From assembly GCA_028711765.1 (NCBI GenBank), contig JAQTRP010000002.1, positions 1 to 47,601 of the forward strand: a DNA stretch of 47,601 nucleotides, in the 5' to 3' direction. A program made the position numbers and the translations under genes. This document shows, in pieces, positions 357-36,481 of this stretch. The stretch is from Candidatus Omnitrophota bacterium (GTDB taxonomy: Bacteria > Omnitrophota > Omnitrophia > Omnitrophales > JAQTRP01). The first letter of the stretch is position 1; each line of letters begins with the position of its first letter. The notes under the pieces are model-generated. The model was not told where the DNA came from. It saw only the letters and a list, made by a program, of their open reading frames with translations, and did not search any database.

Positions 357-3300
357 CCCAAGCGATGCGCCGCCTTCCGGCTGGTAGCCATATAGACGAG
401 ATAGATACACCATATTGAATCCGGCCGCCTCAAAAGCCTTCGCCAGTCTCGGACTCTTTACTATTTCTACCCATACTCTATTTACTATCCGCCGAACTCG
501 TTCTCTTGTTAAACCAAACTGTAACCCGATTGCATTAAGAGTTTTGCCCTTGAGGCGTTCCGCAAAAATATCTACATTCCTAGCACTCACCATTTTGCGA
601 AGGATACCTTTTAACAAAGACTTCAGCTCTTCTATATCTAACTTGCCTAATGAAAGAGGCTCTTTTCGCCGTGAATCTATTCTTAACACCAAACTTGATT
701 CGTGAACCTCTCTCCGCTTCAACCTTTCATTGTCCGGGACTATAGATATTTGAAGCTGTCTTTTTCCGTTGCTACGTCTCAATAAGCTGAGTCTAATGCT
801 TGTTGAAAGATACGCATGAAATGGTTTTCCTTGTATATATTTCGCGATACATGTCCTAAGCCTATCTTCCCATTTAGACTCATCTAAATTAACCGGCGTA
901 CCGTTTACATGCACCAGGCAAGCGGCCCAATATCTAAACAATCTCTCCGCCAAACCGCGTAACACATAGTAACTGGCGCGATTGCCTTGCTGGGCATCTA
1001 CGGTCAATTTATTCTCCTCTTCGTCTGTCAACCCCTGTTTTAAGATATCATCTATAGTATCCGGCAGACGTTCGTGTCCCTCGTGCTCCCCCAATATAGA
1101 CCTTGCACTTTCCCAATCTTCATAAGTAAGATTAAGGACGGGCGGGTCTACAACCAAATCTTCTATCCCTAAATACCGTTTTAACGCTTTCAATGCGTTA
1201 GCCATGCTGTCGCAACGGAATTTTCTATTTGCCCACGCTAAAATACCTCCTAAACCCTTATTGTTAAACTTGGGCACAGGTTTACTAAAATCAAAAACAA
1301 CTAAAGCGCCCGGCTTTTCCTTCAAGGCCTCGGCAAGCAGTCCTACCATATGCAGTTTCGCTTTCCTTGTAGCCCGTTGCCATATACAGCGCACGACACC
1401 TTTTCCAAGTTTGAATAGGGGCAGTATGTTTTCTTCTGTTATATCTTGCGCTGAACGGTTTTGCCTTTTGTCCGCACCCAACAACCGTCCGGCTTGCCTC
1501 TCTGCCTGCCTGCCGGCAAGGCAGGCTTCCGGCTTCTCTTGACTATTGACTATGGACTCTGGATCATGGACTGCTTCACGGCCCAGTGACGAACCTTGGA
1601 AAGGAAGCTTGCGCTGAGCGGCAAGCTCAAAAGGATTTAAACCGTCTTTGACTAACTCCCGATTCACCCGCATCAATACCGCGGGAAGCAAGACGTGAGA
1701 GCACTCAAGCAGTTCCGCCAATTCGGTGGAACTCAGTTTTATTAATCTCTTTTCATAATTAACGCTGGGAACCGTTTTGTCGCCTAAGTTTTCTAACCGC
1801 CCCATACACGTTTTGACATAGTCCGCATTCACGGATCTTAAAAGCGCCCTGTCATAGTTTTTTCTTTTTTCGGGATCGGTTAATACTTCGCGGGCGCGTG
1901 TTATCCGGACAAACATTTCGCTACTTTCTCCGCCGCGATGGTCCGGATGATACCTCGCTGCCAGTCCTCGATACGCCTTTTTTATTTCTTGCGGGGCAGC
2001 ATCAAATGAAACTCCGAGTGTTTCATAATGACTTCTTCCGGATAAAAATTCGGGTATTCCCGGTATGGTTAGCGCCTTTTCATCCCGCATTTTTGCGAGG
2101 CGACGCAGTACAACCCAAAAACATGACTTTAGCACCATAATATCTATTCCTATCTTCCAGGCAATCTCCGTGCGGAAGGGGAGGCGCCTTCTCGCGGGAT
2201 TCTTTCTAAAAACCGCCAGAACATATTCCACCGCAACATCCACGGCTAACGCGTTAATTATTGGGGCAACCTCTTCCAATAATGGCCTAAAGTTTGAACC
2301 TTCAACGTTAAATATTTTTAATCTCTCGCGAAGTGCTAACCGGCCGATCCCGAGCAGTTTCGCAGCCCTAGACTTATTGCCGGAACACGCGGTGAGCGCC
2401 CACACGGTAAGGACTCTCCTCAGAGTACTTATTGTGATTATCTCCACGTACGGCCATTGTCTTGCAATTTCCAATACGCTGTCCTTGCCTAATCTCATCT
2501 TTATCATCCATTCATTAAGAGCCGATAGGCATATCCCCAAATGGCACGCTGCCTTACGCCTGTTAAATTTACCGTTTTCTGAAGTTTCTTTCAGGGCGTA
2601 TGCTACAAGCTTTCTTGTCCATGCCGCAATGTTGTATGCTTTGAAGTCAGGATCCCTAAAGATATCTTTTCTCTTTTTGCTCGCCGTTGGGGGTGAGCTC
2701 CTAAAAATTGGGCGATCGATATTAAATCCTTCAATGTCTTTTAAATAAAGCGTCCTCGTGCTGATTCCGAGCAGTTTCGCGGCCCTAGCCTTATCGCCGG
2801 AACATGCAGCGAGCGCCCGCCTAACAAGAACTTTTTCCAATGAACTCACCGTAATTATTGTCTGAAGCGGCCATTCTTTCGCTATTTCCTGAATATTGCC
2901 TTTAACTCTCATGCTGCGCATTAATCTATAAATAGTAGTCTTACTCATCCCTAAGCGCAACGCCATCTCTCCTCTGTTTAATTTCCCATCCTTCGAAGCT
3001 AACATAAGGGCGTATGCTACAAGCCTTCTTTTCCAAGTTTTAATTTTGTACGTATCCAGATCCGGAAATCCATCAGTATTTATCCCTAATGACGAGCCGG
3101 TAGTCCGGTTAGCCAGTAAGCTTGTTAGCGTGTTAGCCGGTTGGACAGTTATGGGCCCAACCCGCTCACTGGCGAACTCACTAACCGGCGCACCAACACG
3201 GCCCAGCGACGAGCCGTCCGCGGTGATACGCTTTTCGATTTCTTGATGCATCTTTGCCAGATCTTCGGGCAGGGTAGAATATCTACTGCTACTGCCGGAT

Positions 3301-6300
3301 GGAACTTTTTCTCCTCTAAGAGAATAGTAAACCGCTTCCGCCATTGCCTTAGTAATGCGGGAATCATACCCTTCTTCGTTGAATACGGGAGGCAGGACTA
3401 GGCCCTTTTTCAATTGCTCTTCGGAAACCATAGAGGCTAAAGCGAGGCTGGCTTGGGCAGATACTTCTTCGATATCAATACCGTCCGTTAAAAGTCCTTT
3501 TTCTAAGGCATCCGCTAAGGCGCGGAATACACCGGGAAAGGCATAACAATTATTTATGGTGGTAATTCCGGGAATGCCGAATCTGCCGCAGGCGGCCACC
3601 GATATATTATTGAATTTACCCTCTTTCTTTTGCTTCATAATCTCCCCTATATCAAACTCAGGGTCGGGATTGGCGCAGGCAAAAACAAAAGCGCCGTCCC
3701 TCATCCCCGAAAGAAGCTTTTCCTCTCTCCCCCAAAGAGCCTTCGGCTGAGAAAGCCCTATGAAACCATCCGCGCCACTAAGCGCCCCTTTGAGGTCGCC
3801 GGAGAAGTCTTTGTTATAGTCTAAAAGACCCTTTTTGACAGGGGTTAAATCCCTTCTTCCACTATGAATCACGCCTTTGGAATCAAAAACAATAATATGC
3901 TCGACCCCCAGCCTATGAAGAAGATGAGCGGATGCAACGGCTGACGCACCCGCTCCGTTAATCACAATCTTTGCCTCTTCCAACGGACGGCCGGAAATCT
4001 TCAGCGCATTGATTACCGCCGCGCATATAGTAATAGCGGTGCCGTGCTGATCGTCATGCATAGTAGGTATTTTAAGCTTTTCATTCAGGTGCCTCTCGAT
4101 CTTAAAACATACGGGGCTCGCGATATCTTCAAGCATTATGAGGACGTCCCCATACTCCTTTTTAAGCTTCTCAACCTCTTTTATTACCTTCCTCTCCACG
4201 CCGGCCAAATCTTTATTCTTCCACTCTCGCCGCGTATCAACTAACAAGATATTGGCATCTACATTGCCAAACCATTTAAGCAGCGCTTGTTTGCCTTCCA
4301 TAACCGGGCCCGCGCCCATGAACCCGATATTGCCCAAACCCAAAACAGCTGAACCATCTGTTACAATCCAGAGCTTGTGGCTTGGGTCGTTTTGAATGTG
4401 AACGAATTCCTTGAAATATTCTTCATTTTCCGCGGCCAACTTAGCTATCTCGGCTACTCCGGGGCTATAGATAGTGGCCATTATCTCTGCGGAAGATACC
4501 GGCACCACGCCAAGTTTATCCCATAAACCTCTCAAATATTTATAGGTACTTTTGGGTTGCGGGTTAACCAGCTTACCGGCTGACCGGCTAACCGGCTCAC
4601 CAGACCGCCCCAACGACGCGCCGGCAGTACCGGTTGTAAGTTGTAAGTTATAAGTTTTAAGTTGCTCATTCTGTAATGGTTTACTTACAACTAATAACTT
4701 AGAACTTATAACTGAATCTCCCTCCCCCAGCGACGAACCACCCTCTTTTTTGTCGTGAGGAGTCCTGAGCGAATCCGCCGCAGTTTTGGCGGACGAGTCG
4801 AAGGGCGACGCGCCCGTAGCCCAGTTAGCCGGTGAGCCTGTTAGCGTGTTAGCCGGTTGGACAGTTATGGGCCCAACCCGCTCACTGGCGAACTCACTAA
4901 CCGGCGCACCAACACGGCCCAGCGATGCGCCCTTCGACTGAAGCGCTTTCAGCACCTCACCCGCTTTCTCGCGGACCTTTGCGTCCGGCTCGTAATCAGC
5001 GTTTGCGGAACATTGAACCCAAGGAACAACACCCGCGTCCCTAAGCTCCGCGAGGACTTCGAGAATCGCCATACGCATGGCGGCATTCTGCTCATACACG
5101 GTATTCTGAACGATAGACGTTCCGTCCGGCCCGTAAACATTAGGCACAAGCCTCACGGCAAAACGCGGCGCGAGATCCTGGATAGCTGTGCCGCCCATAA
5201 TCGAGAAAAGCTCGCGGATCCTATCCCTATTTACAGCATCCGTTTCATACTCAGGATTCGCAATCGGCTTTCCGTCCGCTCCGCGCGTAAAGCAACAATT
5301 GGCGTCGTGTTCATACTTAATAAGCTTGCGCGCGATAAGGGCTTTACGGCGATCGTCAACAGATGCCTCCTCATTATGCTTCGCCATAGTTATGAGAGTA
5401 ACTAAAGCTGCCCTCCGGCCTACAAAATCTTCCTCGTTATAAGTGGGGTTTGAAAACAATTTTCCGTCAGGATGTTGCTTCACAACGTTTTGCTCATCGT
5501 ACGAATACTTGAAAAGCATCATATCTGCGAGAAATCTGGCTATTTCAGGCTTATACCACTTCACATTCTGCCTCATGTGGTTAATGGCACTAATCCTAGC
5601 AGACGGATTCTCAAGGTGTTTTATCAATTTCGTACGGTCATTTTGAACAGGAAGTTTGTTATCCTCCGGCTGCTCCGCCCCGCCTGCCCTGAGCGATGTC
5701 GAAGGGTTGGCAGATTTCTCGGGAGTTTTGCCTACGGGGCCCGCCCGATCGCCGAGCGAACGGCCGCCGCCGAGACGCTTTATTAAAATAGACAACGCCT
5801 GATTAAAAAAGTCCTCGATTGAATCGCGGTCGCGCAACTTGCCGGGAGTGATAAGATCCGCGCCCAAGGCCGTCAACTGAGACGCGAGCGATTCCTCGCC
5901 GTTTTCGGTTTGCGTTGAGTTAACAATCACAACCGGCTTTACGGCACAACGTTCTCTGATGAACCTTAAAACAGCCCGCCCGTCAATACGCTCACGACCT
6001 CCGCATCCTTCCTTTCCGAGATCAAGAACTACTATATGGATGCCCGGCGATTTGAATTCGGCGTAAACATCGACATTATTCGAAGCCGAGATAATATTTT
6101 CCTCAGCCACTCCCAAACGTTCCAACACTTCACGCAACGCCTCTGAATGGTTCTCGTCATCTTCGGCAATCAGAATCTTGATCGAAAATTTATTTATCAT
6201 AGCGCCCAAGCTCGAACCCTTAGTTCCATCCTCTTTGCTATCCTTTTTCTCTTCTTCGCGGCGCCTGAGCTCATCTTCAATGGCTTTCCGCGCGTCTTTC

Positions 6301-9300: not shown

Positions 9301-12300
9301 GGCCGGATTCCTGTCACGTCTTCCACCGCCTTTAAAAGCGCCAGCGAAGGATGATGATTTTTGCACGCAAGAAGAGGAATAAGGCCCGCGTCAATGGCCT
9401 TTTTGACATAACCCTTCAAGTACTCGACTTGCTCATTAAAATTCTCAAGACCAAGCAGAACTATGCTATCCGGAATTATGTAATAACCGTCCGGCACCGC
9501 GACTTTGCGCCCGCCAACCTTGACAAAGCGCTCTTCACCTAACGACTTGCCAAAACTGTCATTGCGAGCGGAGTCCCTGCCTGGCCGGCAGGCAGGCGCC
9601 GAAGGCGGACGAAGCGAAGCAATCTCAGAGCCATTGCTTAGAGATTGCCTGCCTGCCGGCAAGGCAGGCTTCGTCGGCCTTATGGCCTCCTCGCAATGAC
9701 GTATCAGCTTTCCTAATGACCTACCTTCTTTAGACTGTGGACTGTGGACTATGGACTGGGCTTCAACGCGGGAATAATCGGGCGGGACAAGCAAACCAAC
9801 ATTTTCGCGCAAATAAGATGAGAAATTAATCACCGCGAGCTTCTTTCTGAGATCGTCCGCGCTTATGTAATCCGCGCTCCAGGGTAACTCGACGATAGTT
9901 GACTCGGGAATCCGGATGTCCGGCAATGCCTGCTTGATTAGTTTTTTCCAGTAGTCGGACTGGAGCTTCTTCGCAGTAGCCGGCGTCTCTACTCTCGCGT
10001 CCTCATCACGTTTCTTTATCGCGGCGAATATGTCATCGCCCTCATAACCGACTTCGGCGCCGTAGCGCTTCTTGTTGCCGCTTGAGCGCTCAAATTTGTA
10101 TATAGGCACGGCATTGCCGTCCTTATCCTTGTCCGTCTTCTCGGCAATGGAATATTCTATCGGAGCGGAACTCTTGAGACTTCTAATCGTGACTAACCTT
10201 ATACTCGGATCTCCGTATTCGCAGGCGTTGATTTCGGGCGCCGCGTCGCCGTAATCGATAGATTCCTTTCTGCCATTAACAACAATGACATTGCCGAGCC
10301 TATCCTTAAAAGTCTTTTTGGCATCGTCCCGCTGAGTTTTCCTTATCATCGCGAGCGAGATGTGCGCCCTGCCCTCTTTTTCGTTTTCAAGGTCACGGCT
10401 TAAGGCGTGCTCACCGACAAAATACCTATCCGCAAGCGGCGTAAGCAGATTATCGACGTTCATATATTGGACATGCTCGACGCCGAGATCCTCAAGCCAC
10501 TTGACGGCCTCGGCCTCTACAAAATTACCCGCCTCATCCGACCAGACCTTGCCCTTTAGGCGTACGTCGGGATTCAAAACATAATCGAACGCGTCACCGT
10601 GTCCCGCTCCGCCGAGGTTGAGGCGGTCTTTTTTCGCTAAGAATGCCTTGCCGTCATTCTTCTCGCCCGGCTTTCTGATTAGGCCCGGTAAACCCTTCTG
10701 GCGAACAAAAATGACCCTGTCCTTAATATCCTGCCATTCCTTCAGGCTCATCAAATATTCGATTGTCTCTTTCTCTGTCTGCTCACTCAACATAAAGACA
10801 AAAGGATACATTTTCTTATGGCCGTAAGTCTGTGCCGCCGCTTGCAGCTTATGAATCAAGGCTTGATAAAGACTCTCTCCGCTCAACGGCGTTGCCGGGA
10901 ACATACCTTTGGGATGATCGTACTTAAGCCCTGAGCCGGTGCCGCCCGCGACTACGATGCCCGCGAACTTCGCTTTACCTTCATCCGCGCCCCAACGTAA
11001 AACTTCTTCGCCTTTAGCCGCCGCTTCAGGCCTTCTTTCCAAAATAGGTTTTGAAGGAATAAAACCTTTCGTATCAATCGAAAGTTTCTCTTTCCTTACG
11101 ACGAGCTTCTCGTAGAGCGCTGTTACTTCGGCCCAATCAACACCCTCGATATCGCCGAGGAGGTTCCCTCTTTCGGCATCGGTAAGCCCATCCCAGCCCG
11201 CGAGCAAATGCTCCTGCCCAAATTCCTTTAATTTCGCAAGCGCCGCTTGATAGCGCACCTCGAGAGATGAGCCGGAGGACGACCAGCCGCTTAAGTGAGA
11301 GTGATTTGCTATGTTAAAACCGCTCCCGCTAAAGGCCGCTATTAATCTTGGATTCTCTGCTATTTGTCTCTTTATTTCATTTGTTATCTGTCGAATTCGC
11401 TCCCTTGTTAAACTAAATTGTTTTCCTATTTCCTTAAGTGTTTTACCGCTAAGGCGTTCCGCGAAGATTTTTACATCCCTATCTTCTATCCCACTACCAA
11501 GAACACTCTTTAATAAAGACATCAAATCTTCTATCTCCAAGTCGTTTAAAAAAAGTGCCTTTTCGTCCCTTGAACGGCGGTTTAGCCCCAAGCCTAGTTC
11601 GTCAATTTCTCTCCGTTTAAGCGGTTCCTCATTTCTATCACCGGTAATTATAGATATTTGACGCTTCACTTTTCTATTAAAATATGCCCACAGGGCAAGT
11701 CCAATGCTTTTTGAAAGATACGCATGAAATGGCTTTCCTTGTTTATACCTTGTAACACATGTCTTAAGCCTTTCTTCCCAGGAGAATTCTTCAAATTTAT
11801 CACATGATATGCCGACCTTTTTCGCCGTATAATAGGCCCGATACCTAAATAGTCTTTCTGCTAAACTGCGTAGGACATAATAACTTGCAAGGTTGCCAAA
11901 CTGGGCATCTTCGGCTAACTCGTTCATCTCCTTTTCCGCTAATTTCTGGTTTAAGATACTATCTATTACATCCGGCAACTGTTCACATCCTTTGTGCCTA
12001 TACAAGATAGCCTTTGTCCTTCCCCAGTCTTCGTTCTTAAACCAGTCTTCGTTCTTAAAATTAAGAACGGGCTTAACAACAACCAAGTCCTTTATGCCCA
12101 AATGCTGTTTAAGCGCCTTCGATCCCTCGGTCAAGCTATTGCAGTGAAATTTCGCTACAGCCCAGTGTAAAAGACCTATTAACGACCTACCATTAAATTC
12201 GGGTGTGGATTTGTGAAAATCGAGAGGGATCAAAGCGCCCGGATCTTTCCTGACTGCCTTAGCGAGCAAATTTACTATATACAGCTTCGCCTTTTTTGTT

Positions 12301-15300
12301 GCCCGCTGCCATATATGATGGCGCATGCCTTTTTTAAACAGGCGCAGCATGTTTTTCTCCGTTATATCTTGTTTTATATCCTGTCGCGCAATCTCCTCTA
12401 TGCCAAGGTACTTTTTTAGTTCTCTTACGGCTTCACTTGGCCCAACACAATGAAATTCTCTCATTGCCCATGCCAAGAAACCCGTCAACTTCTTATTGTT
12501 AAACTTGGGTATAGGTTTATAAAAGTCAGAGGTAGTCAAAGCACCCGGCTTTTTTCTACGTGCTTTAGCGAGCAAATTTACCATACGCAGCTTCGCCTTT
12601 TTTGTTGCCCGCTGCCATGTATTGCGTGTGCCCTCTTTGAACAGGCGCAGCACATTTCTCTCCGTTATGTCTTGTCTTATATCTCGTTTTATATCCTGTC
12701 GCGCAATCTCCTCTATGCCAAAATATTTCTTTAGTTCTCTTACGGCTTCACTTGGCCTAACACAATGAAATTCCCCCATTACCCATAGCAAGAGGCCCGC
12801 CAACACCTTATTGTTAAACTTGGGTATAGGTTTATAAAAGTCATGTGCGATCAAAGCGCCCGGCTCTTTCCTGACTGCCTTAGCGAGCAAATTTACCATA
12901 CGCAGCTTCGCCTTTTTTGTTGCCCGCTGCCATATCCTATACACAGTACCCCTTGTAAAGAGATTAAGGATTTCACTTTTTGTTACATCTTGGGCTGAAT
13001 GGTTTTGCCACTTATCCCCCCCCAGCGACGAGCCGGTAAAATCAAGGGGCAAGTGCCAAGGGTCAAGAGTCAAGGCTTCCCTTGCTACTTGACCCTTGCT
13101 ACCTGACCCTGCCTTTCGGCCCAGTGACGATCCAGACTTGACCTCGCGTTCAGTCGGGAGGCGCATGATGTGAGCGAAATACCGGCCGTCGGGGTTATCC
13201 TCCAATATTTTCCTAACCGCGGACTCATAATCGGAAATGTCTTCGCCGTTGTATCTGATATAACCGGCGGGCACCACAAGCGCTTTAAGGCCGGAAAACA
13301 CTTTTTCCGCGATCGGCGCAAGATGCTCCGGCGCGATGATCGCCACCATGTCTTCGGCCTTAACTGCAGGCTCTGCCCCCCACTCACCAAGGACAGTCGC
13401 GCCGTGGGGAACCACCCCGAGCTTGAGTTTCTCGCGCGGCACAACGAAAATAATGCTCTGGCGCTTGGCCTCGGCAGGATCAATCTTCACCCCATAAGAA
13501 CGCGGCCGCTCCTTCGCTATGCTGAAAAGGCCGGTTTTAGGATGGTGGAAAACCTGATTGAAGTACCATTCGTTTAGTTCGCGGACACGCTCTTCGGGAC
13601 TCACGATAGCCCTAAAGTGACGCAACAGTCTCGGATCGACGTCAAGGTCGACCTCGCCAGCCTTGATATAACTCAGATCCTCGACGAACGGCGCGACCAA
13701 GACTGTGTCTTCGCGTTCAATTTGGGGAGTTATTTGGGGATTGAGCAAGAAACCCGCAACGAAATTTTCCGCGTAGCGGTCACCGGACGGTATATGAGGA
13801 ATATTTTTACTGTCGAGCAGATTAAGGGAAAGAAGGCCGTTTTTGCGGACACCCGCAAGCCTTTTTTCGATGACGCGGCGAAGCCGAACGGACAAAGGCG
13901 GCGCCCTGAAATCCGTTTTCTCACCGGCCAAATATCCGCGCGCCTCGCGGATTACCTTGGGAACATTGGAAATTTCTTTATCCTGAGGCAGAATTTTGCA
14001 GAGCGCCTCCGCCCCTTCGGCGTCCGATACGGCAAGCCTGTATTTATTGCCTTTGGCAGGAACTATCAAACCGGCAAGCTCGAGAATCTCAAAATCCTCA
14101 AATGCGGCCTCGGCCGGAAGTTTCGCGGCTTTCAGATAATCCTCAAACTCAAAACTCCTGCCTCTTAGGGCGCGGAAGAGGCTCTTGAAAACACGGCTAA
14201 GGGACATGGCGCTCTCGGTCGCCGAGGCGTAGTCGCAGTAAACATCGGTCGCTTTGATGCCGGAAGAGTCATAATCGGAAGGAACATCGTCGGTAAAAAA
14301 TATTTCGGGCTTTGAACCGTTTATCCAAGCGTTGACGAGCGTAACACCCTTTTGCCTGCCGATTCTCAGGGCGAAATCGAGCAGAGTCTCCTTCAGGCCC
14401 TTGAACAATACCTCAAATTTAGGATCGACATAAAGCGCCTCCCCCGCCGCTACGGTTCTTGGCGTAAGATCCTCGCTGTCAACGCCCGCATCTATATTGC
14501 CAAGATCGTCTGACGAACGAAACCGGTTATATATGTCCATAACGCTACCCGGCCTGCTTATCTTAAAATGTATGAATCCTACTTCGATGCCGCCGTATTC
14601 CGCCGTAATTATGTGCCGGTCCGAATATTTATCGTAACTATCGGGAGATCTGGTTTCATAGCAAAAAACTACCTCGCCGCCGTGATTTATCTTAAGGATA
14701 AGCTTTCCCTTCTCCAACAGGTTCTCTTCAAAGCGATTTTCGGCCTCATCTTCTGTTTCAAGGCCGGCACTCAAGCAAACTTTTATTTCCTTAAAACGCT
14801 CGTCTATCAACTCAAGCGCAGCCTTAACAAACCCGCTCTTTATCTTATATTTATCAACCTTCCGTTGACAGGCTTCGAACTCTTTATTGAGCCGGGTCAG
14901 GACCTTTTCTGCGCCATCGGCATCCTTGTCCCGAATGTCCCTCAACAAATCCTCCGCTTCAAGCTTGAGAAATACCAGCTTCACCCAAACCTCCTTATAT
15001 ATATCTTTCTTCTCGGCGTCGCTTGGTTTCGCACCGGCACTCCCGTGGATTTCCAAATCCTCCGCAGTAACAAAAGGAAGTAGTCCTTTTTTGGCGCGTT
15101 CTTTATTGATATCTCCTTTAACCCCTTTTGCGCCCGGCTTTGTCAAGCCGAGAAGCCGCGCGAGTTCGTCTACCGAAGGAGGATAACCTTTGTCTTTGAT
15201 AAACTTATCATAAGCGCGCATAAAATCCCCGGTCCCGAGCGATTTGCCGTTGTCGTTTCCGGCGGGTTTTTGGTTCTTTGCCTCGTCATCGCTGCGCGCA

Positions 15301-18300
15301 ATACCGGAAATAGGCGCTGAATATTTCGGGGGAGTCGGCTTAACTCTCCAAGAAAATACCTTTTTGATCCATCCCCAAATAGCCCGAAGACAATCCGATA
15401 AATTTTGTCCTGCCTTTATTAAAACAACCGCCGGAAAGTTGCGCCAAGACACCCTGCAAACCCTAAATAATACCTCTGTGCGTATATATTCTCCCGAATG
15501 CTTCCTGCTGAATACTCTGACTCCCGGAACTATTCCTATCGAGTCGCAGCCTTCTTCTTCTGTAATCCCAAACCTTTTTTTGAGTTCCTTCTTCTTCTCA
15601 AAATCCGTTTCCGCCAGATACTCGTAAAGCCGCAGCTTCGCGCGAATTGTCCTCGCGACAACCGTGATGGGATTATTATTCAATACCGCGCTGTCCCTGA
15701 TAGCCGCCCACAAACCCGCAAGACGTACGCCTAACGAGCTACCCAGTGATTTGCCGCGGCCGGATTCACTGGCCATTCTGCCGCGCCAGTCGTTCAGGGC
15801 TTTAAAAGGATCCGGATGAGGAAGGCCCAATCTGCCAAAGTCCTTACCCTCGGCAAGCTCTTTCTCCCAAAGTTCGTCATTTTCGGTGTTAGAATATAAA
15901 ATGTCATACATATCACTGATCAAGCCCTCAATTTGATCTTCATAGAAACCCGCGAGAGATGGCGGCACAAGCTTTACGCAATCTCTGATTATATCTCTTA
16001 ACACGGCGAGGACTGCGCCAACGTCACCAAAGGCTGCCGGATGCGAAAAGGACATCTTGTCGAAATCGAAGCTGACAACATCGCCGGCAATGTTTCTGCC
16101 GGCATTAAAGATCGTAAAATCAACATCAAAAACACCGCGCATCCACAACTGATAGAATAAACTGCAGTAATCAAATATAAGCCTGCGCCCCTCTATATTA
16201 GAAACATTCCAGAGAAGCCCCCTCTTCGGATCTTCCTTGCAGGCAAGGACATCAACATATTCCTGTATCACACCAACCTGCTTGCCTCGGCTGATTATAT
16301 AGCTCTTAGCAGCCAAACCGTTTAGCCTTTTCTGAGCCATTACCAGATTTTCTGCAAGAGATTTAATTAGAGTTTCCTTTTGGAGGATTTTCTCGACCAG
16401 GTACATACCTTCTATAATGTAAACGTTTGTAAAAACTGTCCCCATTGTACTAAGAAGCAGCCTACGCCTGCCTTTGGCGCCATGCGTTATGTGTGCTTTT
16501 CCTCCCCTCAGGTTCTGCAGGAATTCCTTTTCTTTAGGACCGATTTGCTCGAGCAAAGTTGAGACCTCATAATAGGACTTGCTGCTATCTTTCGTCTTTA
16601 TCAATTCCGGCAGGATAAATGGGTTAGAATTACTCCCCAGTGACTTGCCCGACTTAGCGACTCTTTTCTCCTTTAAACTATTTTCCAAGGCCCTAAGCGG
16701 GAAAGGATGCGGCAAGCCCAGAACATCAAACCCTGCACCTTTTTTCAAGTCTTTCTCCCAATAGTAATTTTCACTATAAGGACTTGAGTAAAACAGGTCA
16801 TAGGCATCCGTAATCAGCCCTTCTGTTACCTTCGAGTAAAAATCTGCAAGACGGGCTGGGACAAAATTCACACCGTATCTGACGACATTCCTTAAAAGGC
16901 CGAGTTCGGCACCGACGTCTCCGTGCATAGAACCCGGATAAAAATCCTGCATCTTGTCCCAATCCACAGTCACGAGATCGCCGGCAATATTTACCCCCAC
17001 ATTAAAAATTCCAAAATCAATGTCGAAGATGCCCCTCTGCCACACCCTATAACACAAAGTGCAGTAACCCATAATAAGCCGGCGGCCGACTTCCTCCGGA
17101 ATACGCCATAATAAACCTTTCTCTTTCTCATCAAGCGAAACCAGAATATCGACATACTCCTGGATAAGATTACCCTGGCCTGATACATGCATCTTTGCCA
17201 CTAAGCCGTTCAACCTTCGTCTTACAAAGCTTATCCTCTTCCTGAAATCCTTGATTAGCTTTCCGCTCTCTAGAACCTTCTCAACTAAATTTGTCCCCTT
17301 AGCCATAAAAACATTTGTAAATACCGTACCCCTCCTGCTGAGCGGAACGCGCTTCTTGTTCTGAAGCGCTCTCTCTATCTGTACTCGAGTTCCCGTAAGT
17401 TTCCGCAGATACTGTTGTTCTTCGGTACTTCGCTGTACCAAAACCCGGCATAGCTTCTCGCCCTGCACTGCCATTGCCCCCAGCGATGAACCGGATTTGT
17501 CTTCTGCGACTTTGCCGTTACTCAGCGGTTTGTAAGCGTCGACTAACCGCGTAATATCTTCGCCTCTATCCGCGCGCTCAAGGCATTCTGCAATTACCTC
17601 TATAGCTTTTACTGAGACATCATGTACAAGCTGCGAAACCTTGACCATATTTTCATTTGAGCAAGCTTCCGCGCACTCTTTCACCCTAAGACTTAACGCG
17701 GCTAGCTCACCATATGAGCTTACAGAATCACTAAGCTTTGAATAACCGTTTGCCCTCAAGAGTAAAACACCAGATTTCTTTGCAATCGAGTTAACATGTT
17801 GTATCAAAGAAAACACTTTCTCGATTAATCCCCCGTTATCAGCTGCAAAAGTGTAAATATTATCGAGTCCAACTTTGAATGTTTCCAACTTGCCTTTTAA
17901 ATCATGGCCAGCGCCCAGCTTTATCAATAAAGAACCGGCAACTTTGAGCTCGATAAAAGGATGCAGACCAAGTTTTATTTCGACCGGCAGATTCGGGTCG
18001 CAAGGCGGATATTCTTCGTAAGTATTGTCGAACTGTTCGTGAGAGGGCCCGTGCGAATTCCCCCATCTGTAATAAAGTTCGCGGATAAGGGCATAAATTT
18101 TCCACGCACCGTGAAGCCGTCCTGTCCAGAGTATTCTTTCATCAGCGGTTAAATCCTTTTTGCTTAATTGAGAGAGGGCTTCCCTCTCAAGTACCGGCCC
18201 GCAGAATAAGACATCGCAGATGTAATCCCAAGAATCCTTAGACCCTTCGATTATATCTTTCAGGACATCGACTGAGGCATCAGGATAAATAAAACCAAAA

Positions 18301-21300
18301 TCAGCCCCCACATTGCAGATTTCCGCCGCAAGCTCAGGGTTTGTCATTTTTGATACGCGCCTTGCGCAATCCAACTCTTCCTTACCTGAAAATACCCAGA
18401 GTCCGGGAAATCGGCATAAGTCAAATGCCCTAATTTCCTTCTGCAGTTTTTCAAATTCCTTTCTTAATTTTCTTCCTAACTTCGGACTTTTGGTAATTCC
18501 TATCCGTTCTCTTAATTTCTGCAAGTCGGATGCTTTTTGGACCGCAATTGTTTTTGGATGCCTTGATAGATCGACGCCGTCATCTTCCCGTTCAGTCTTT
18601 TCCCCCAGCGAAGAGCCGGATTGTTCAGCCGGAGGTCTATCATCACGCAGGAACTCGAACCCGTAAGGATGGGCCGGAGGGGACAGGCTTACATAGGCTT
18701 TGATAATGAGAATAGATAAAAACGAAATAACGCCCACGAAGAAGGCAACTATGCTCGCGCCCATAAAATGCAAAACAATCTCGGAGTGGACGGGCTTCGA
18801 TATCCGGTAAGTCCACATAAATGTGGCGAGCCCTGCCGCTAATGCCAAGCCGATAGACCAGCTTATAGAACGATTGCATACAAAATTCCGATCCGGACTT
18901 AAGGCATACTTAAACGCTTCCCGCAACCTGCCCAAAAAAGTGGCCGCGTTGCTTAAGAGTATCTTCGGATCCCAGCCGAAATTTAATAAAATCCTTTCTC
19001 CGTACAATCCCTTAAAGAACTTGAACGACGACTCGGCATTATGGCTTCCGTAGTGTGATTTAATCCCCTCCGCAAAGCTGCCGACGTAACAACTTATCGA
19101 ATCAATATGGGGAAAATAGGCAAGATAAAACCTCGCGAGATTCAAAAGGTCGTTCGACCGGATATCCTTCTCTTTTGCGCCTTCTCTAAAATCGCGGAGA
19201 GGCAGGAATTCCACTCTGATTTTCTTGATGCCCAGCCTTGTTAAATCACGGGGAAGACCTTCCTCAAATATCAAAACCTCAATCGGAAGATCGCACACGC
19301 TTGTGTCCTTTTTCAGCGCGCCCGGTTTTTCAAAATTTATCATGTGCTCTTCTAACAACTGCGAGAGAAAGGTGATTGTTTTAACCGGTTCTCCGGCTTT
19401 CGGTTTTCTCACCTCCGCCGCCTGCCTGTAATCTATAACTAAACCTATAGTCAACTCGCCGTCTTTATGCTTCTTGTCCGGATTAGTCGCGAGTACCGCC
19501 ACGGCGCTATTGATACCCGGAATGTCATCGCGCGACAGTGGGCTTGCCAGTTCCGACAACAAATCCTTCAGTGTCGCTGCTGATTTTCTCTCTCCCTCCT
19601 TCAGTGTTGCTGCCGACATTCTTTCCCAATCCCCACTCTTTTCTATCCGCGCGTCCTGCTCCCACCACCTCGCGACCGCGTTTAAGATCTCATTAGCGTT
19701 TGTGCCAAGTGACGAGCCCGCAGTCCAGTGAGCCTGTGCGCGGGTCAGCCGGTGTGCCGGTTGATTACTTTTAACTTCTGACTTCTGACTTTTGACTTCA
19801 CCTTCCTTCCCCAGCGACCTTCCTAAAACCTGTGGATGGTTCCCTGTCTGCCGCCGGGCGGGAATGGTAAACAGTGAACCGTTTGGAAGCGCCCAGTTGA
19901 AGACCTCGCCGGTTTCCAAATCTAAAACCAAATTGAGCATATTGCCGCCGTAGATGTCCTCTTCAACAACCGGGATTCCAAGACCATCTAAGGTCTGGTA
20001 CACTCGGAAAATGCTATATTTATTATATTCTCTATCCGGATCCGGAATGGAACCGCTGTAGACTTTCGCGACCAAATTTTCCGGCCCGCAGTTCCGCTTC
20101 TTCAATTCGGTTACAGCGTCCGCAATCGCGGCCTCGATATCTGCTACGGGCATAAGATGTAAAAAGCAGCCGCTTTTATTCTTCGCATCATACAAAACCA
20201 AAGCGATGCAAACAGATACGTTATCTGTCGCTATATAACGCTTATCCTTCACATTGCAAGCAACGCCCTGCGACCAGTCGACATAGTCAACCTCTTCGCG
20301 GGATAACTCCATTTCGCTCCGCGCGCGTGGACTTTGGGTAGGCTTGATTCCCTCAAGCAAGCCCTTCCGTAATACCTTTTTCGCGACGCGGTCCAGCGCC
20401 TCTTTGTCGACGCTAGGAAAGTATTTTTTCCATACCCCCAGCGACCTACCCGTGATGCCTACGGGAAGACGGCCTGCTTTCTCGTCAGACCATATGTCAT
20501 ACCACAGCGCTTTTTCCTGTTCGATTTTGCGCGCAATGACAGATGCCGGAACAAAAATCCTAAACAACGTCCCATTTTCCCCTCTTATCCCGTCTCGAAT
20601 CTCAACCTCATAAGGCAGTTTGCATGATATCTTCTTTGCCGGCGAGCCGGACGCCTTAGTCTCGGCTTCGATGAGGCTGGCCTTCAAATCATACATCTCC
20701 TGAAGCGTGAGATTTAAACCCCAACCGGCGCCGCCGGTAAGATACTTCTCGCCAGACTTTGTGCTGTAGGCCCTTTCAAAAATCCTGCCCAGCGATTCTT
20801 TGTCTATGCCTATACCGTTGTCCTCAACTTCAATCACTAAATGTTCGCCTTCTTTTGCGATGGCCAAGCGCAATTTGCCTTCATTGCCTCTAAGCTTTCC
20901 TTCGATTTTTGCTTTGGCAATGGCATCGATAGCGTTCTCGGTAAGATGGAAAAACAAATTTCCTATAATCCAAGCGTCGTAAGCGCTTATTTCAAAACCT
21001 TTGCTGTTGAAAATCACGCGAATCGCCTCCTCGCCGAATAGTCTTTCGGCAATGCGATCGCGCTTCGTTTCCAAATGTTTCCTGAAGGCTGCCTCTTTCT
21101 CTCCAGAAACAGCAACTGGGATAATTTCTTCAAATATAACTTTTCTCCCCAGCGATTTTCCTTCGGAAACGCGCTTGCGTTGGTCGATGAGCCTTCTCAC
21201 CATTTTGAGGCTGTCGGAAAGGCCGCCTATCTTGCTTTCCCGCTCGGATTCGAACCAATGGATGCCGACTTCGCGGATTTTATAACCGGCGGGTTTTGCC

Positions 21301-24300
21301 AAAAGAAGTAATTCGGTATCGAAAGCGGGCGATTTGTCTTTTACGAAAGGAAGGATCCCATAAAGCGCTTCCCTCTTGAATAGTTTAAATCCCCGCTGGG
21401 TGTCTTGAACGCTCCGGAGTTCCGGCAGGATAATCCGCACGCAAAAGCTGTAAATTTTACTCGATAGAATCCCCTGAAGCGACATACCCTCACGACTAGC
21501 ACCAGCCGTCCAGCGGGAACCAATCGCGACATCCGCCTTCTTACGATAAAGCGGCCTGAGCAATAGGCCGATCTCGCGGAGGTCGACTGAGGTATCGACA
21601 TCGGTATAGCCGATATAGTCGGCTTTATTCTCTAACAACGCCGCCCCTAGGCCAAAGTGCACGGCCCCGCCTTTTTTGCCGCCCAAGGCTTTCTTCTCTT
21701 CGGGGGTAACCACCTCGACTGAAAGCTGCTCAGAAAAAAGGCGTTCTCCTTTTTCCCCGTACTCTCTCAGGATTTCCCGCCAAAGTTTCTCTATGTATTT
21801 AGCCGAAGCGGCGTCCGGACTACCATCGTCAACCGCGATCAGTTTCCACTTAAAATTAGGGTTCGCTTTAGTCAATTCCTGAAGCTGGGCCACCTTAAGC
21901 CTTAACGCGTCTTCGCCCTCCGGATTATCGGCGCTCCGCGGTTTAAGCCTCGCTTCTTCGTTATACATAGGCATAACCAACGCCACCGTGACCGGCTCCT
22001 TTATGGTTTTGATGAAGCCGAGCGACCGTCGTATTTTATCCGTCTCCGCCGCGCTCCTGCCCTCACCAAGCGACGAGCCGTTAAAATCCGTCGTCCGTGA
22101 CTCGTCGTCCGTCGTCCGCATTCTGTCTTTTGTTATAAATTGATCACTGACGTCTGACGACTGACGCCTGCCCTCCGTAGCCTTGGCGAAGGAGGGACTG
22201 GCGACTGTTTTCCCGCCCAGCGATGCGCCCGTAGGGCTAAGCGAAGAGCTCCAAACAGATCTCGTTGTCAAATCGAGCGCATTGCGGTACATTACGTAGC
22301 ATTCTTCGATAGACGGGCTGTGCGTCCCGAATATATTAGAAAGGCCGTTGGAAACGGAAACCTCTATGATCGATTCAAGGTCTTTGGCTTGGGCCACCTT
22401 CCTATTCGACGGTTTGTCGGAGAAACTACCAAAATCATCCACGAACAGGACCACTATGTCGTCCTTACGTCTTACCAACTTAAAATTCCCAAGGTGCATA
22501 TCGGAGGTGTCGGGAGCCTCGCCGTAGTACCCAAGGAAATGGAATATCGCGATGATGCCCAACACCTGCCGGGCTATTGCCTCGCCGAGTTTCCGCGCAT
22601 CGCCTCCATAGCAAGCGTATTCTTTCGCGATCTTTTCCAACTGATCCGGACCTATATCTTCGAGGCGCGAACCGTCCTCGTATTCGAAGATGGCTATATT
22701 GGCGGATTCTTCCAGGTTGCTCATATCGAAGGCCGTCGTCTTTCCGTAGATTTCGAGCTCGTTATACGGCAGTGAGTAAAAAGCCACGGGGCGGACAAGC
22801 GACGCATTGGGAAAGCGCTCCAATATTTGGTTTGGTATCTCGAAATCATTGGGGCTTACTATGTGTCTCGCGTACTCATCGTGGTCTTCCTCGCCGGGAA
22901 TCTTTATTTCGAGCGCGAAACTCACGCGTTTGGTTTCGTCCATCCTGAATATTACATGTCTTCTGAATGAATTCGGAGACGGCGTTACATATATCCCGCC
23001 GCCCAGATGGAAATACGTTCCTTCTCTGATGCAATCCGCCAGAACGCCGCCGCACTCTCTGTATATCTCTCTTAACGTCGTCAGTATGCAGAGAAGTTTT
23101 CTGACATTCTCCGGGTTAAAGAGAAGGTTGTACATCGCAGGGTCGCCTGCCATGAGCCTTTCTTTAGCGCCGTCGAATGCGCGTATACCGGCCGGCTCAC
23201 AATCCGGTTTTGCTTCAAGATCGGGCATGCCTTCCGTCGCAAGAAGAGGAAGGATATCCATCCTCTTCGCCATCCTCCGCCAAACGAGAATGGCGGTGGC
23301 ATTATCTCTATCAAACAGCTCTTCTCTGAATAATTTTATTTCGCCGGGCAACAATTGGAGCTTGGGATTCCTTTCGCAAAATATGTCAAGGATGTACAGC
23401 ATAGAAGCTTTTGGCACGAGGTTTTTAGAAAATAGCAAACGCATTAAGTCCAGATCGGACTGGACAGGCTCACGTTTGACTCTTGGGTCGCTAAAATAGG
23501 AAGATACAACATCAAGCAACCTCAGAATCTGCTCTATGTCGACCTCGTCGCGTAAATGGTCGAAGAGTACTTCGTAAAGAGACGGCTTGTTACTAATGGC
23601 CTTCGCAGCAGCGAGGCAGAGATTTTTGCGAACCCGATAACTAAAAATTCCTTTCCTGTATAAAATCAAGAGATCCGCAAAACCTTTATCGGATAATTGA
23701 ATGTCCGGATTTTCATGTATGGCGTGCCATAGGTCCTGACTAACAACACTGGGAGCCTCTTCTGCTACCCCGGCGTCTCTTCTCTTTAAAAAATCAAACA
23801 TACCCCTAAGCGTCATGCTGTTAAAGTACATGCCTCCTGCTTCTTCCTCTGTCCGGCCCAGCGAGGCGCCGCTCCCGAGTTGTGCGTATCGGCTAACATA
23901 TTTGAAGAATCTTTTACGATTATCATAATGCCGAAATTCGGACCCGCCTTCTTTCGCATACCATCTTGCGAGTATTTGGGTGATGCTCTCCGTTTTAATG
24001 TCTCCCAATATCGCTTCAGGAGGCGGATTGGTCATTAATGCGGCATGGTCGCACGTAAAAAGCTTTCCATCGGCTCCGACAAACAGAAAGATTCTACCGG
24101 CTGCACGATGCCCTGTCGTTACATCAAAAGGATTCAATGTTCTCGCAAATATCCCTTCCTCTTTATCAAAGTCTTTGGCGCCGCCCTGCGCGATAAGATG
24201 ATTCACGTACACTTCGTCTGTCGAGGGATTCAAATGGTACCGTTCGAAAATATGCTTGCGCTCTTCGCCTCCATGGCCAGGTGCGGAAGCCAGCCGAACG

Positions 24301-27300
24301 TTGTACCCGATAGCCAGCCGCTTCTTCCGAGCAACATAATCCTGAACGCCACGAACAATCTTTTTTAAATCTACTCCCTTTTCCGATTCTTCCTTCTCGT
24401 GCCACTTATCTACCGAGATTACCAACGTAACATTATCGGGCAGTTTGTCCAAGAAACCATCAAGTTTGCTTTGGTCTTCGGGAAAACAATAAGCGTTGGT
24501 GTCTATGTGAACTTTTTTAACGTGCCGCGAGGCAAAGTTAATTAAGTCATAAAATTCCGGTACAGGTTCTCGTGTCTCAAAATCTCTCTTATAGTAGTAA
24601 AAGGGCTCTCCTCCCGTAAAATATATGCTGGGATAACCGTCCATCTCCTCAAGCACCCTTTTTAGAATTTCAAGTGGTATATCCGCTTCGGGTGCAGCAC
24701 GCCTAACATCCTCGATGCAACACATGGGGCAATTGAGCGGACATTTGTGCGTAATCATTATGTTGATATTTGGGTCAAAAAGCGGAGATAAGGCTTTAAT
24801 AAGGCTTGCTACATTTACCGCTTTTTCAGCCACAACCTTGGCGGCAGGCTTGCCCCTTCCAACCAATGCTTTTGCAACGGTCTCATAGGAGCAACCGTCG
24901 CTCTTACTGCATAACAAATCGATGAGCGCCTTTGTCGAACGTGGATCATCAATACCGCATAACGCCCTAGCGGCAAACAAGCATTTAACATAATCGCCGT
25001 TTTCCAAAAGGTCGATGAGCGGTTCTGCGGCGGAAGGGTCCCCGATTTCACCTAGAGCGATGGCCGCACTCACCGTTTTATTCGATGGTTCGCCTCTCAG
25101 CGCTTGAATCAGGGGCCGAACGGCAGCACGTTTAAATTCAACGATAGCATCAATAAAACAGGAATGATCGCTTGAACGACGATACTCGGGCTCCTTCAAG
25201 TTCTCTTCATAGTAATTGTCACTTTCCAGACAAGCAATAAGAGGTCCTATCGCAGAAGGATCGCGGATCTCGCCAAGAATGTTAGCCGCGTTAGCTTGCA
25301 CATTTTTCGAGTTATTGTTTAGCTCTTTGATTAGAACCGGCACAGAGGAAGGACCGATCTCCTTAAAGACATCGACTAAGTTATCAACCTTTTGAAACCG
25401 CCCGTAACTACTACACCAACCACTATGTTTAGACGTCCTATAACAATCCCACTCATAATAAGGGGCTTTCTCCAGACAACGCAACGCGTAAGGAAGCGCC
25501 CTCTCTCTGCCTATCCTCGCTAAAGACAATACGGTCCTTTCACGTGGAAATTCTCGATCCATCCGCTCTAATCCTCCATCGGCTATATACTCAAAAGCGG
25601 GCTCATAACGCAAACTTTCCAAGGCCTCAAGGACTGCTAAAACCACATTGCGATCCCCGCCGCTTTTCAACGCCTTGAAAAGCGGCCCTCCTGCCGAGAG
25701 ATCGCCGATCTTGCCTAAAGTTTCTGCGGCGCGCTCTCGCAGTAAAGGATTAAACCAGCCTCGATAACCCCTCAGGCATTTCGAAAGAAACCGAACGGCA
25801 GGCTTTTCCATTTCTACCAAAGCGCGTGAGGCAGCATCGGCAATGTGTGAATCTTCGCTCTTTAACGCCTCGACCAACTCTGAAAACGAACATTCGGACA
25901 TCTTGGAAGCCAGCTCATCAGCTAAAGCAGCTGCCGCTCCCGCGCTATTTTCCTCCCCCAGCGACGAGCCGGTAGTCCGGTTAGCCGGTAAGCCTGTGAG
26001 CGAGTCAGCCAGTGCACCGTTAGGTCCTGAGATTGCCACGGCTGCTTCTGGCAGCCTCGCAATGACACCGCTAACTATGAACTGTGAACTATGAACTATG
26101 AACTGCGGCTCCGCCGCACGGCCCAGCGACGCGCCGGTAGTCCGGTTAGCCGGTAAGCCTGTGAACGAGTCAGCCAGTGCACCGTTAGGCCCTGAGATTG
26201 CCACGGCTGCTTCTGGCAGCCTCGCAATGACACCGCTAACTATGAACTGTGAACTATGAACTATGAACTGCGGCTCCGCCGCACGGCCCAGCGATGCGCC
26301 GCTTCCGCCTACGGCGGGCTCTTCACTAAAAAGGCGGGCGAGGAGAGTGTGAGAGTCGGGAACGCATGCCTTGCAAAAATGATTGGCCAACCGTTCGAAC
26401 AAACTGCCGTAGCCTTGAACCTCGGCAAGCCTTTTTAATACCGCTGAAATATTGAGTCTAACGCTCGTAGTCTGTAAACTTTTGCATGTGTCTTCGAACC
26501 CTTTCTCGAAAGCCGACGCGATTTCTAATCTTGTCCCCTCAGTACCCCTTTCCCACGATTTCATCTTGCGCAGCCTGTCAAGATAGCGCCTCGAAAATCC
26601 GTGAATAAAATCAACCAGCCAGGATTTATAACTAAACTGGTTGGATGTATCGTAGAGCGTATCGATAATGTCGAGGCCGTTGAGATTAAAAAAGATAACC
26701 TTGCCCGTTTTCGCGTCAACAAATACCGTTTCCGGTTTGGACTCAAGAATTGAAGCATTGGGAAGGAACCAACCGCTTAGACGGGCAAGCCTTCCCAAAT
26801 CGCGCGCAAAGTTAAGCGCGGCTTCACCGGAAAGTTCGCGATCCAAGCGTTCGTCACTAAGGGCATACGCATCGAGCTTTTCGCGAACGACAAAACGGCC
26901 GCGGCGGGCAATATCGCAGACCGGAAGACCAAGCTGCTTTAATATCCGGCTGGTAAGCGTGCGCTTTCTTTCTTCGCGTCCTGTGTAAAAGCTTTGCTTT
27001 TCTATCGCTATAGGCAGCGTTTTTCCATCTTCGAAAACTAGATCATAAAAATATGAAATCGGCATCTTGTCTTCGGAGTCTACGAGCTTCTCGAAACTAT
27101 CGCCGAGATAATCTTTTATAAGCTTCGCTAATTTGTAATGTTGAAAGTAATCGCGGCTTAAGACCCAGCTTAGGCGGGAAAGGAGGCGTTTCGCTTTGCG
27201 GGAGCGGGAGTGAAATAAATTATCAACCGGCATAGCAATCTTCTTTGTAAACCAATGCCGAATGCACCTTGAGCGATAAGCCCAGCTATCGGGAAACCAC

Positions 27301-31499: not shown

Positions 31500-31607
31500 A
31501 TGGAGGTGCAGATTTAGTCCTTGTTGTAACCTATGGTGGGCGAAGAAGATATGGAATAAGCTATAAGATAAACAGCGCTAATTTCACTTACAACTTAAAG
31601 CTTATAG

Positions 31608-34595: not shown

Positions 34596-34715
34596 CACAG
34601 ATAATCACAGATGAACATTTGTAACCACAATCACACAGATGATCGCAGATAGATTTTATCTGCGCCAATCTGTGTAGTCCATATCTGTGATCATCCCTGC
34701 CTGCCGGCAGGCAGG
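34596..34715. repeat. Stuttered cacagat / atctgtg words in inverted arrangement, plus a perfect 20-nt palindrome (34696-34715) just downstream of the msbA-like stop
   Basis: Forward words at 34596, 34606, 34634 and 34644. Reverse words at 34658, 34668 and 34683. Then cctgcctgccggcaggcagg. Confidence 0.7.
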
Positions 34716-34722
34716 TGTGTTT

Positions 34723-36474: not shown

Positions 36475-36481
36475 AGAAGTT

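Follow-up and report, generated by a model that had tools for sequence, protein, structure and literature searches.

Word-repeat cassettes at module junctions of a giant Omnitrophota open reading frame resemble intergenic palindromic elements kept open in frame

The DNA analysed here (hereafter the window) comprises positions 1 to 47,601 of contig JAQTRP010000002.1 of Candidatus Omnitrophota bacterium (assembly GCA_028711765.1). Its minus strand carries a giant open reading frame (ORF) at positions 3-31418, which has at least 10,472 codons, is free of stops for 31.4 kb and truncated at one end of the window. Unrelated domains of this ORF meet at junctions marked by the peptide motif G-x-SLG, and at eight of about 26 junctions only, two or three copies of the motif enclose low-complexity cassettes of 28-59 amino acids (aa) each, with unit lengths of 90-165 nt, inside the intact ORF. 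A preliminary description had located all eight; its coordinates, motif numbers and peptide lengths were correct, the distal motif of the cassette at 1476-1595 being degenerate (GRLLG). The explanation that we hold to be probable, with some reserve, is that these spacers are intergenic elements similar to repetitive extragenic palindromes (REPs), transposable elements of the miniature inverted-repeat type (MITEs) and heptamer repeats, residing in disposable linkers of a polyprotein-like gene, purged of stop codons and spread by motif-anchored recombination.

The DNA of the cassettes is built of short words in stuttered copies. When the window was scanned throughout for lag autocorrelation, in steps of 28 nt with a threshold of 20 matches (block-shuffled sequence reached a maximum of 19-20), lags 7, 8 and 11 alone exceeded chance. 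All 17 stutter tracts were located in cassettes or intergenic gaps, and none was found in module-coding sequence or in other genes. Lag-7 tracts were present in seven of the eight cassettes as well as in intergenic regions, and two tracts (4559-4612 and 9721-9763) adjoin the motif brackets from outside. Tandem Repeats Finder likewise placed arrays with periods of 7, 8, 14 or 16 at every cassette and in intergenic gaps, while ordinary coding sequence was free of them. In agreement with the preliminary statement that this is not normal coding DNA, the GC content of the cassettes is 58% versus 48% for the modules, and the coding-frame score is below the module mean for all eight cassettes, six of which rank at or below the 11th percentile. 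The encoded peptides are rich in G, A, S, T, P and Q and poor in aromatic residues.

The words themselves are shared with the intergenic gaps of the same window. The cassettes contain at least six different words, in imperfect copies. The octamer word GGCTNACCGGCTAAC, for which 0.28 matches (up to two mismatches) would be expected, was found 14 times, distributed over five cassettes and the gap between skp and lpxC (45040-45103); TAAGYTA, CTCACTGGCG and the CCTGCC palindrome are likewise common to cassettes and gaps. When eleven words were considered together, almost all of about 70 matches fell in the 1.6 kb of cassette DNA and the 1.1 kb of intergenic DNA, and three in the 45 kb of ordinary coding sequence. 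Word repeats or hairpins were found in at least six of the nine gaps that measure 24 nt or longer, irrespective of how the flanking genes are oriented. The earlier proposal that spacers and intergenic hairpins are made of the same word families therefore stands for these families, but not for each hairpin listed: region 42847-42908 contains word repeats and lacks a convincing hairpin.

Identical cassette DNA is read in different frames. The 27-nt sequence GAAGCCTGCCTTGCCGGCAGGCAGGCA occurs at 1503-1529 and at 9646-9672, where it is read as EACLAGRQA in one copy and KPALPAGRQ in the other, and the 11-nt sequence TCATTGCGAGG encodes RHCEE at 9546-9710 and VIARL at 25956-26300. The encoded G/A/S/T/P/Q-rich peptide would therefore be incidental. 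Neither of the word periods, 7 or 8, is a multiple of three. In three tracts whose word consensus contains TAG or TAA, all five stops that would fall in frame are removed by a single-base change (TAG to CAG or GAG; TAA to TCA or TTA); copies that lie off frame retain the stop triplet, and intergenic copies of the words carry stops in all frames.

Relatives of the cassette components were found elsewhere. A 285-aa partial protein from an Omnitrophota metagenome-assembled genome (MAG) (MDD5084598.1, here P0003) contains the peptide of the 4617-4724 hairpin at 87% aa identity. It reads ...HWTMGQSLG-EGDSVISSKLLVVSKPLQNAQLKTYNLQLKT-..., so that the cassette peptide directly follows G-x-SLG, and an octamer-type peptide precedes it. 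The flanks are otherwise unrelated, the second motif is absent and the junction is a different one. P0003 was the sole such match in an exhaustive HMMER search of 1.84 billion representatives with one cassette, the other match being an irrelevant repeat protein; a metagenome scan with the cassette alignment gave no match.

At the DNA level, two palindromes of the cassettes are members of families that are widespread in environmental contigs and apparently undescribed. The palindrome CCTGCCT(N)GCCGGCAGGCAGG was found in 63 copies on 54 IMG/VR stretches (L003-L056). These belong to unrelated contigs and contain the 20-nt palindrome CCTGCCTGCCGGCAGGCAGG. Heptamer stutters (GTGAGAG/CTCTAAC and others) often flank it; a lag-7 stutter lies no more than 100 nt from nine of the copies, compared with none or one for other lags. 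In L004, for example, the element lies between ORFs (10560-10670 and 11200-11320) and is flanked by GTGAGAG/CTCTAAC heptamers. This suggests that the CCTGCC palindrome and heptamer stutters form a widespread composite repeat class. The second family, GTCATTGCGAGS...GCAATCTC, is present on more than 120 IMG/VR stretches classified as viral (L057-L176, e.g. L152), and many of these contigs hold more than one copy. In canonical form it is a nested palindrome, GTCATTGCGAG..GCAATCTC..loop..GAGATTGC..CTCGCAATGAC, also written in environmental contigs as CCGTCATTGCGAG..GCAATCTC..loop..GAGATTGC..CTCGCAATGACGG, and the cassette at 9546-9710 shares this architecture. Both families are skewed to ORF ends or gaps, and the nested palindrome is depleted deep inside open frames (21%, versus 55% for random positions). 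A literature search for its core sequence returned unrelated primer matches only, and no Rfam family was found for it.

Together, the reading of identical DNA in different frames, the removal of stops, the weak coding signal, the widespread families and the recurrence in P0003 show that the cassettes are nucleic-acid elements and not peptide modules. In view of these data and of the shared words, their preliminary designation as intergenic or REP-type elements held open in frame is upheld.

A CCTGCC-type palindrome was also observed in frame in a radical SAM gene on scaffold L001 (6657-6688), where it encodes PTGRPACPVGRQ just before a GSGTIFF...CxxxCxxC region. In this other Omnitrophota genome, an ordinary gene seems to have received an in-frame insertion; a check of the putative insertion against PDB and NCBIfam was uninformative.

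The cassettes are motif-to-motif units, and their duplications respect the motif. The malic-enzyme module is flanked by 130-nt direct repeats (3091-3220 and 4807-4936) of 92% identity; their perfectly identical core, estimated by eye, is about 93 nt. The arrangement looks like that of a module bounded by recombination-prone repeats. A cassette also precedes each of two paralogous sigma-like regions, whose DNA homology starts exactly at the proximal motif. Within these paralogous junctions (13020-13133 and 1476-1595) the left heptamer arm can be aligned, and in one of them the right arm is swapped for a CCTGCC palindrome. The bracket motifs thus persist, and the cassette interiors turn over much faster than the modules do. 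Recombination, earlier proposed as a role of the spacers in module exchange, is thus supported as a process by motif-bounded duplications; as a function it is not shown.

The tripeptide SLG occurs 36 times in the giant ORF, against 5.5 expected, and 33 of the occurrences have the form G-x-SLG (G-[S/A/R/K]-S-L-G) and fall between unrelated domains. The motif codons vary synonymously (Ser TCG/TCA/AGC; Leu CTG/TTA/CTC/TTG), and the peptide is therefore the level at which the motif is conserved. In several places it directly precedes a natural domain N-terminus, as in GSSLGA-MINKFSIKILIAEDD (response regulator) and SLGA-MAVQG, which lends indirect support to putative proteolysis at the flanking motifs. 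Most proximal motifs of the cassettes read G-[AS]-SLG-R and have conserved DNA, GGNKCRTCRCTGGGCCGTG; most distal ones read G-S-SLG-E/G, with DNA CTGGGGGAGG. The flanking copies differ at 3-4 of 15 nt and form proximal (SLGR) and distal (SLGE/G) classes instead of matched pairs. In a bacterial polyprotein, G-x-SLG is a candidate for a motif of processing or of junctions; the window yielded no protease domain. Two back-to-back motifs free of any spacer, GKSLGSSLG, are present at 15729-15749 (minus strand); they may have been left by a deletion or may represent an 'empty' site for a cassette.

Folding was analysed on the mRNA strand for ten cassette units, each against 100 dinucleotide shuffles (Table 1). 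Strong folding (z <= -3.4) was obtained for four units and marginal folding for two; the remaining four fold no better than shuffles. The long hairpins of the preliminary description are accordingly found in about half of the units. Its description of spacer 9552-9710 as almost entirely one palindrome was right, the nested palindrome covering 9546-9710. Some of the failures have a structural explanation: the units of 25956-26300 hold only the left half of the nested palindrome and therefore do not fold, and at 1476-1595 the replacement of the right arm by the CCTGCC palindrome leaves a non-folding 'half element'. In a sliding scan the mean z was -1.24 for cassette windows versus -0.08 for module windows (Mann-Whitney p = 3.5e-6), although a few module windows reach z < -3 as well. 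The mRNA strand has no consistent advantage in stability over its complement of the kind that would indicate selection on the mRNA. Scans for terminators and for promoters revealed no enrichment at the cassettes, none of which was called a terminator on the mRNA strand, and a search of Rfam with the cassettes gave no match. No slippery heptamers were seen by inspection, and -1 frameshift signals were rejected as candidates. The strongest fold of the sliding scan (z -6.1, 20 shuffles) was that of positions 47001-47100, which lie in a bamA-like gene and are unrelated to the word families.

Table 1. Cassettes of the giant ORF and intergenic repeat elements of the window, with the folding of individual cassette units (z on the mRNA strand unless stated; MFE, minimum free energy).
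Position	Strand	Feature	Content	Folding
1476..1595	(-)	cassette	AGTCAAT heptamers and CCTGCCTTGCCGGCAGGCAGG palindrome	1491-1580: z -0.3
3084..3215	(-)	cassette	octamer-arm hairpin; 92%-identical direct repeat of 4807-4936	3093-3200: z -4.2
4559..4931	(-)	composite cassette	three motif copies; octamer-arm hairpin (~4831-4916), non-repeat stretch, TAAGTTN heptamer-arm hairpin (4617-4724); octamer words run on past the last motif (4559-4607)	4617-4724: z -3.4 (opposite strand -6.2); 4734-4916: z -2.5
9537..9763	(-)	cassette	AGTCCAC heptamers at 9721-9763, upstream of the proximal motif; nested palindrome 9546-9710, GTCATTGCGAGG..GCAATCTC..GAGATTGC..CTCGCAATGAC, each arm of which encloses a CCTGCC palindrome	9546-9710: MFE -93.4, z -8.3; one nested palindrome
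13020..13133	(-)	cassette	GGTCAAG/CTTGACC heptamer-arm hairpin, 31-nt arms; paralogue of junction 1476-1595	13029-13118: z -4.1
19704..19823	(-)	cassette	AGTCAGA heptamers and octamer words; no hairpin	19713-19808: z 0.0
22065..22229	(-)	cassette	CGTCAGN heptamers, then CGGACGA heptamers; weak fold	22074-22214: z -2.3
25956..26300	(-)	cassette	two tandem 165-nt motif-to-motif units, 98% identical, each with AGTTCAT heptamers x4, left half of GTCATTGCGAGG...GCAATCTC palindrome and CCGGCTAA-type octamers	two units: z about -0.5
31557..31607		intergenic word hairpin	TAAGCTA/AACTTA words; between frr and the giant ORF	
34596..34722		intergenic word hairpin	CACAGAT-word hairpin, then palindrome CCTGCCTGCCGGCAGGCAGG	
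36477..36581		intergenic heptamer-arm hairpin	TAAGCTA/TAGCTTA arms; between divergent genes; stop codons present	
38796..38847		inverted repeat	GTGAC words; between convergent lpxB and histidine kinase genes	
45040..45103	no strand	intergenic hairpin and octamer words	cassette family, 19-nt identity CACAGGCTTACCGGCTAAC	

The explanation that we propose is as follows. The spacers would be copies or fragments of the short palindromic word-repeat elements that occupy the intergenic gaps of this genome, elements made of arms of 7-nt or 8-nt stuttered words together with two GC-rich palindromes. They would sit in the linkers between modules, whose boundaries are marked by G-x-SLG, and be tolerated there, as long as the frame stays open, because the linkers would be the sole dispensable sequence of the gene. 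Selection against stops and frameshifts would remove in-frame stops by point changes. A cassette would start with a motif of the G-[AS]-SLG-R type, which moves together with the unit, and extend to the motif already resident at the next module. Cassettes would duplicate, move and turn over by slippage of the words and, with the repeated motif DNA as the anchor, by recombination or gene conversion. Of these points, the data show that the elements are identical with intergenic families, are restricted to junctions, are independent of frame, avoid stops, have duplicated recently and recur in a second genome. The encoded peptide would be a linker that can be dispensed with and, provided that G-x-SLG serves as a processing site, would be excised; such excision at the flanking motifs is plausible. 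The function of the elements would be whatever they do in intergenic space, or none.

Several points weigh against this reading. The families AGTYCAY, CTTGACC and CGTCAG are present in cassettes only and not in the 1.1 kb of intergenic DNA of the window. Passive tolerance alone does not account for a motif that is consistently present on both sides, and cleavage at G-x-SLG is putative. Furthermore, the comparative basis consists of one genome window and one 285-aa protein fragment from another MAG, and the 87% identity of the cassette peptide in that fragment could reflect constraint on the peptide.

The last point bears on the possibility, distinctly improbable in our view, that the cassettes are low-complexity linkers or propeptides selected at the protein level for disordered spacing and generated by local tandem-repeat expansion, the hairpins being a by-product. 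The retention of the peptide in P0003 and the composition of the cassette peptides, which is typical of disordered linkers, agree with this, and there is a precedent: tandem repeats that create disordered regions are documented in Borg elements (PMC9879509). Selection at the peptide level is however not expected to produce inverted-repeat architecture or 7- and 8-nt periods, nor does it fit with identical DNA in different frames, with the same words in non-coding gaps, or with two components that belong to widespread palindrome families, one of them depleted from open frames. Still less weight, next to none, is left to an assembly artefact in which separate genes were mis-joined at motif or cassette repeats. 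Repeats of up to 165 nt can confuse assemblers, and 100-N gaps interrupt a related MAG scaffold in its intergenic DNA; but the 33 junctions lie on one strand and in one frame that is stop-free over 31.4 kb, most of them consist of a single short motif without a long repeat, and the motif codons vary synonymously, a sign of selection on the peptide. Misassembly was rejected on these grounds.

Another interpretation, which we regard as rather unlikely, is that the hairpins punctuate a giant mRNA by setting the 3′ ends or stability of segments, RNase processing, or ribosome pausing for module folding or cleavage, while the motif pair brackets a sacrificial peptide. REP hairpins stabilise upstream mRNA in operons, and an mRNA of 31+ kb is plausibly in need of such stabilisers. 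The location of the hairpins at module junctions only, the significantly better folding of cassette than of module windows, and the motif copies on both sides, which would let the peptide be discarded, are all in line with punctuation. Against it as the main explanation speak the restriction of cassettes to eight of about 26 junctions, the four of ten units that fold like shuffles, a stability that does not consistently favour the mRNA strand (for 4617-4724 the opposite strand gives the better fold), and the paralogous junctions, which differ in structure and of which one does not fold; moreover, there is no terminator-like signal and no Rfam family, and the same elements lie between divergent genes, where mRNA roles differ. 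A highly improbable idea is that of a device for segmenting expression, in which hairpins would define the 3′ ends or pauses of sub-messages in an mRNA of 30-100 kb and processing motifs would bracket the spacer peptide. Ribosomes reaching the end of a truncated, stop-less segment would then tag and lose only the spacer peptide, finished upstream modules would be released intact, and dozens of enzymes, in effect a fused operon, could be made from one ORF despite the fragility of its mRNA. We give very little credence to the cassettes being dedicated sites for module exchange in the manner of integron attC. The repeats around the malic-enzyme module, the 165-nt motif-to-motif tandem duplication, the module duplication whose boundary lies exactly at the motif, and the same cassette beside a different module in another genome are what such sites would give, but ordinary homologous recombination between repeats gives the same patterns. 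The window contains no recombinase or integrase, the cassettes form a heterogeneous set of families, and inspection of the hairpin bases showed no conserved RYYYAAC/GTTRRRY core pair.

REPs are by definition extragenic. The elements of the window resemble REPs and bacterial interspersed mosaic elements in being short imperfect palindromes that occur across intergenic gaps, are often nested or composite and are prone to recombination, and differ from them in that the cassettes lie inside an ORF. No REP-associated tyrosine transposase (IS200/IS605-like Y1 transposase) or other transposase was present among the ORFs of the window. MITEs are marked by terminal inverted repeats and by identical target-site duplications. 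Inverted arms are present in the cassettes; their flanking motif copies are not identical duplicates, and a search of the window showed no target-site duplication. The analogy with integron attC was rejected: inspection of the hairpin bases revealed no RYYYAAC...GTTRRRY pair, and there is no intI integrase among the ORFs of the window.

The short tandemly repeated repetitive (STRR) sequences of cyanobacteria are a heptamer repeat family. TAACTGA repeats, known from Beggiatoaceae, Cyanobacteria and Bacteroidetes, are tandem heptamers that are mostly intergenic; in reverse orientation, TCAGTTA is open in all frames, encodes LSVISYQ and is occasionally found at the periphery of ORFs (MacGregor 2015, PMC4679880). 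The cassettes share with STRR and TAACTGA repeats the tandem arrays of 7-nt period. They differ from the latter in using many words instead of one, in inverted arrays that serve as hairpin arms, in the joining of the heptamers to octamers and GC-rich palindromes, and in their ORF-internal position at module junctions. TCAGTTA itself occurs once, as the opening word of the TAAGTTN array in cassette 4617-4724, which encodes DSVISSKLLVVS.

The closest in-frame parallel drawn by the preliminary description was with Rickettsia palindromic elements (RPEs), which reside in frame in protein-coding genes and also in non-coding DNA (Ogata et al. 2000, reviewed in PMC10969869). The analogy holds for behaviour and fails for membership. 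Like RPEs, which are palindromic elements of ~100-150 nt that leave the ORF intact, the cassettes have units of 90-165 nt, four with significant hairpins. An RPE family however encodes one conserved peptide in many unrelated ordinary host genes (PMC10969869), whereas cassette DNA is read in several frames (the 27-nt and 11-nt cores), consists of 7- and 8-nt stuttered words and is confined to the motif-marked linkers of one giant gene. The hosts also differ, Rickettsiales in one case and Omnitrophota-like in the other, a separation made by host and not by direct sequence comparison with RPE families. The cassettes would thus represent a second mode of in-frame residence of palindromic repeats besides that of Rickettsia, one in which the DNA and not the peptide is conserved.

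The presence of intergenic repeats suggests that the module boundaries are intergenic-equivalent, dispensable sequence and, as far as sequence can tell, likely cut points of the giant protein. This predicts cleavage at G-x-SLG, spacer peptides missing from the mature products and, possibly, RNA ends at the hairpins. Whether such giants stay one protein or are cut, and where, was stated to be unknown by West-Roberts et al. (10.1101/2023.11.21.568195). Giant ORFs of Omnitrophota span 10,000 to 147,000 aa, and in the multi-enzyme giants of class Gorgyraeia many unrelated Pfam domains tile one ORF (10.64898/2026.06.07.730766, 10.1101/2023.11.21.568195); neither of these reports describes a junction motif, linkers, hairpins or cleavage points.

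In its architecture the present ORF matches this type of multi-enzyme giant. Its Pfam domains are mutually unrelated and of cytoplasmic type: HEAT, radical SAM, GT2, HATPase_c (two copies), sigma70_r4 (two copies), UDPGP, response regulator, malic enzyme, Fis-type HTH and DnaJ. As in the Gorgyraeia giants, domains such as response regulator, radical SAM and HEAT share one ORF with an N-terminal membrane- or signal-like segment. Database relatives of the ORF are Omnitrophota MAG proteins only. A homology search with aa 5900-7600 returned two proteins only (P0001 and P0002), which have one module type in common with it and lack the junction motifs, and a search with aa 3860-5400 gave no match. 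Scans of genome contigs with the N-terminal 1,688 aa and with P0003 revealed no relatives, and a metagenome scan with the helix-turn-helix (HTH) repeat module yielded one giant ORF of 4,138 aa (L002), in which motif and stutters are both absent. Scaffold L001 (GCA_020346285.1, CP070780.1) is interrupted by 100-N gaps, which lie at numerous intergenic sites and also to either side of the partial gene of P0001 (2,221 aa). The assembly of this scaffold probably breaks at repeats, and giant genes with junction repeats may thus be systematically fragmented in MAGs.

Outside the giant ORF, the window holds ordinary chromosomal genes (frr, pyrH, tsf, rpsB, msbA-like, lpxB, lpxI, lpxA, lpxC-fabZ, skp and bamA). 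The likely start of the giant ORF is the methionine at ~31358. About 110 nt upstream of it, at 31499-31471 (minus strand), lies the region's best promoter-like site, a TG-extended TTGCCT-17-TATAAT. Two paralogous regions on the minus strand, 350-1475 and 11300-13020, each contain HTH-repeat modules and a sigma-70-like module. The HTH module is present in three tandem copies at 12056-12933 and in a single copy at 1127-1383, with 61-89% nt identity, and a perfect 18-nt tandem repeat, FKNEDWFKNEDW, is found at 12024-12059.

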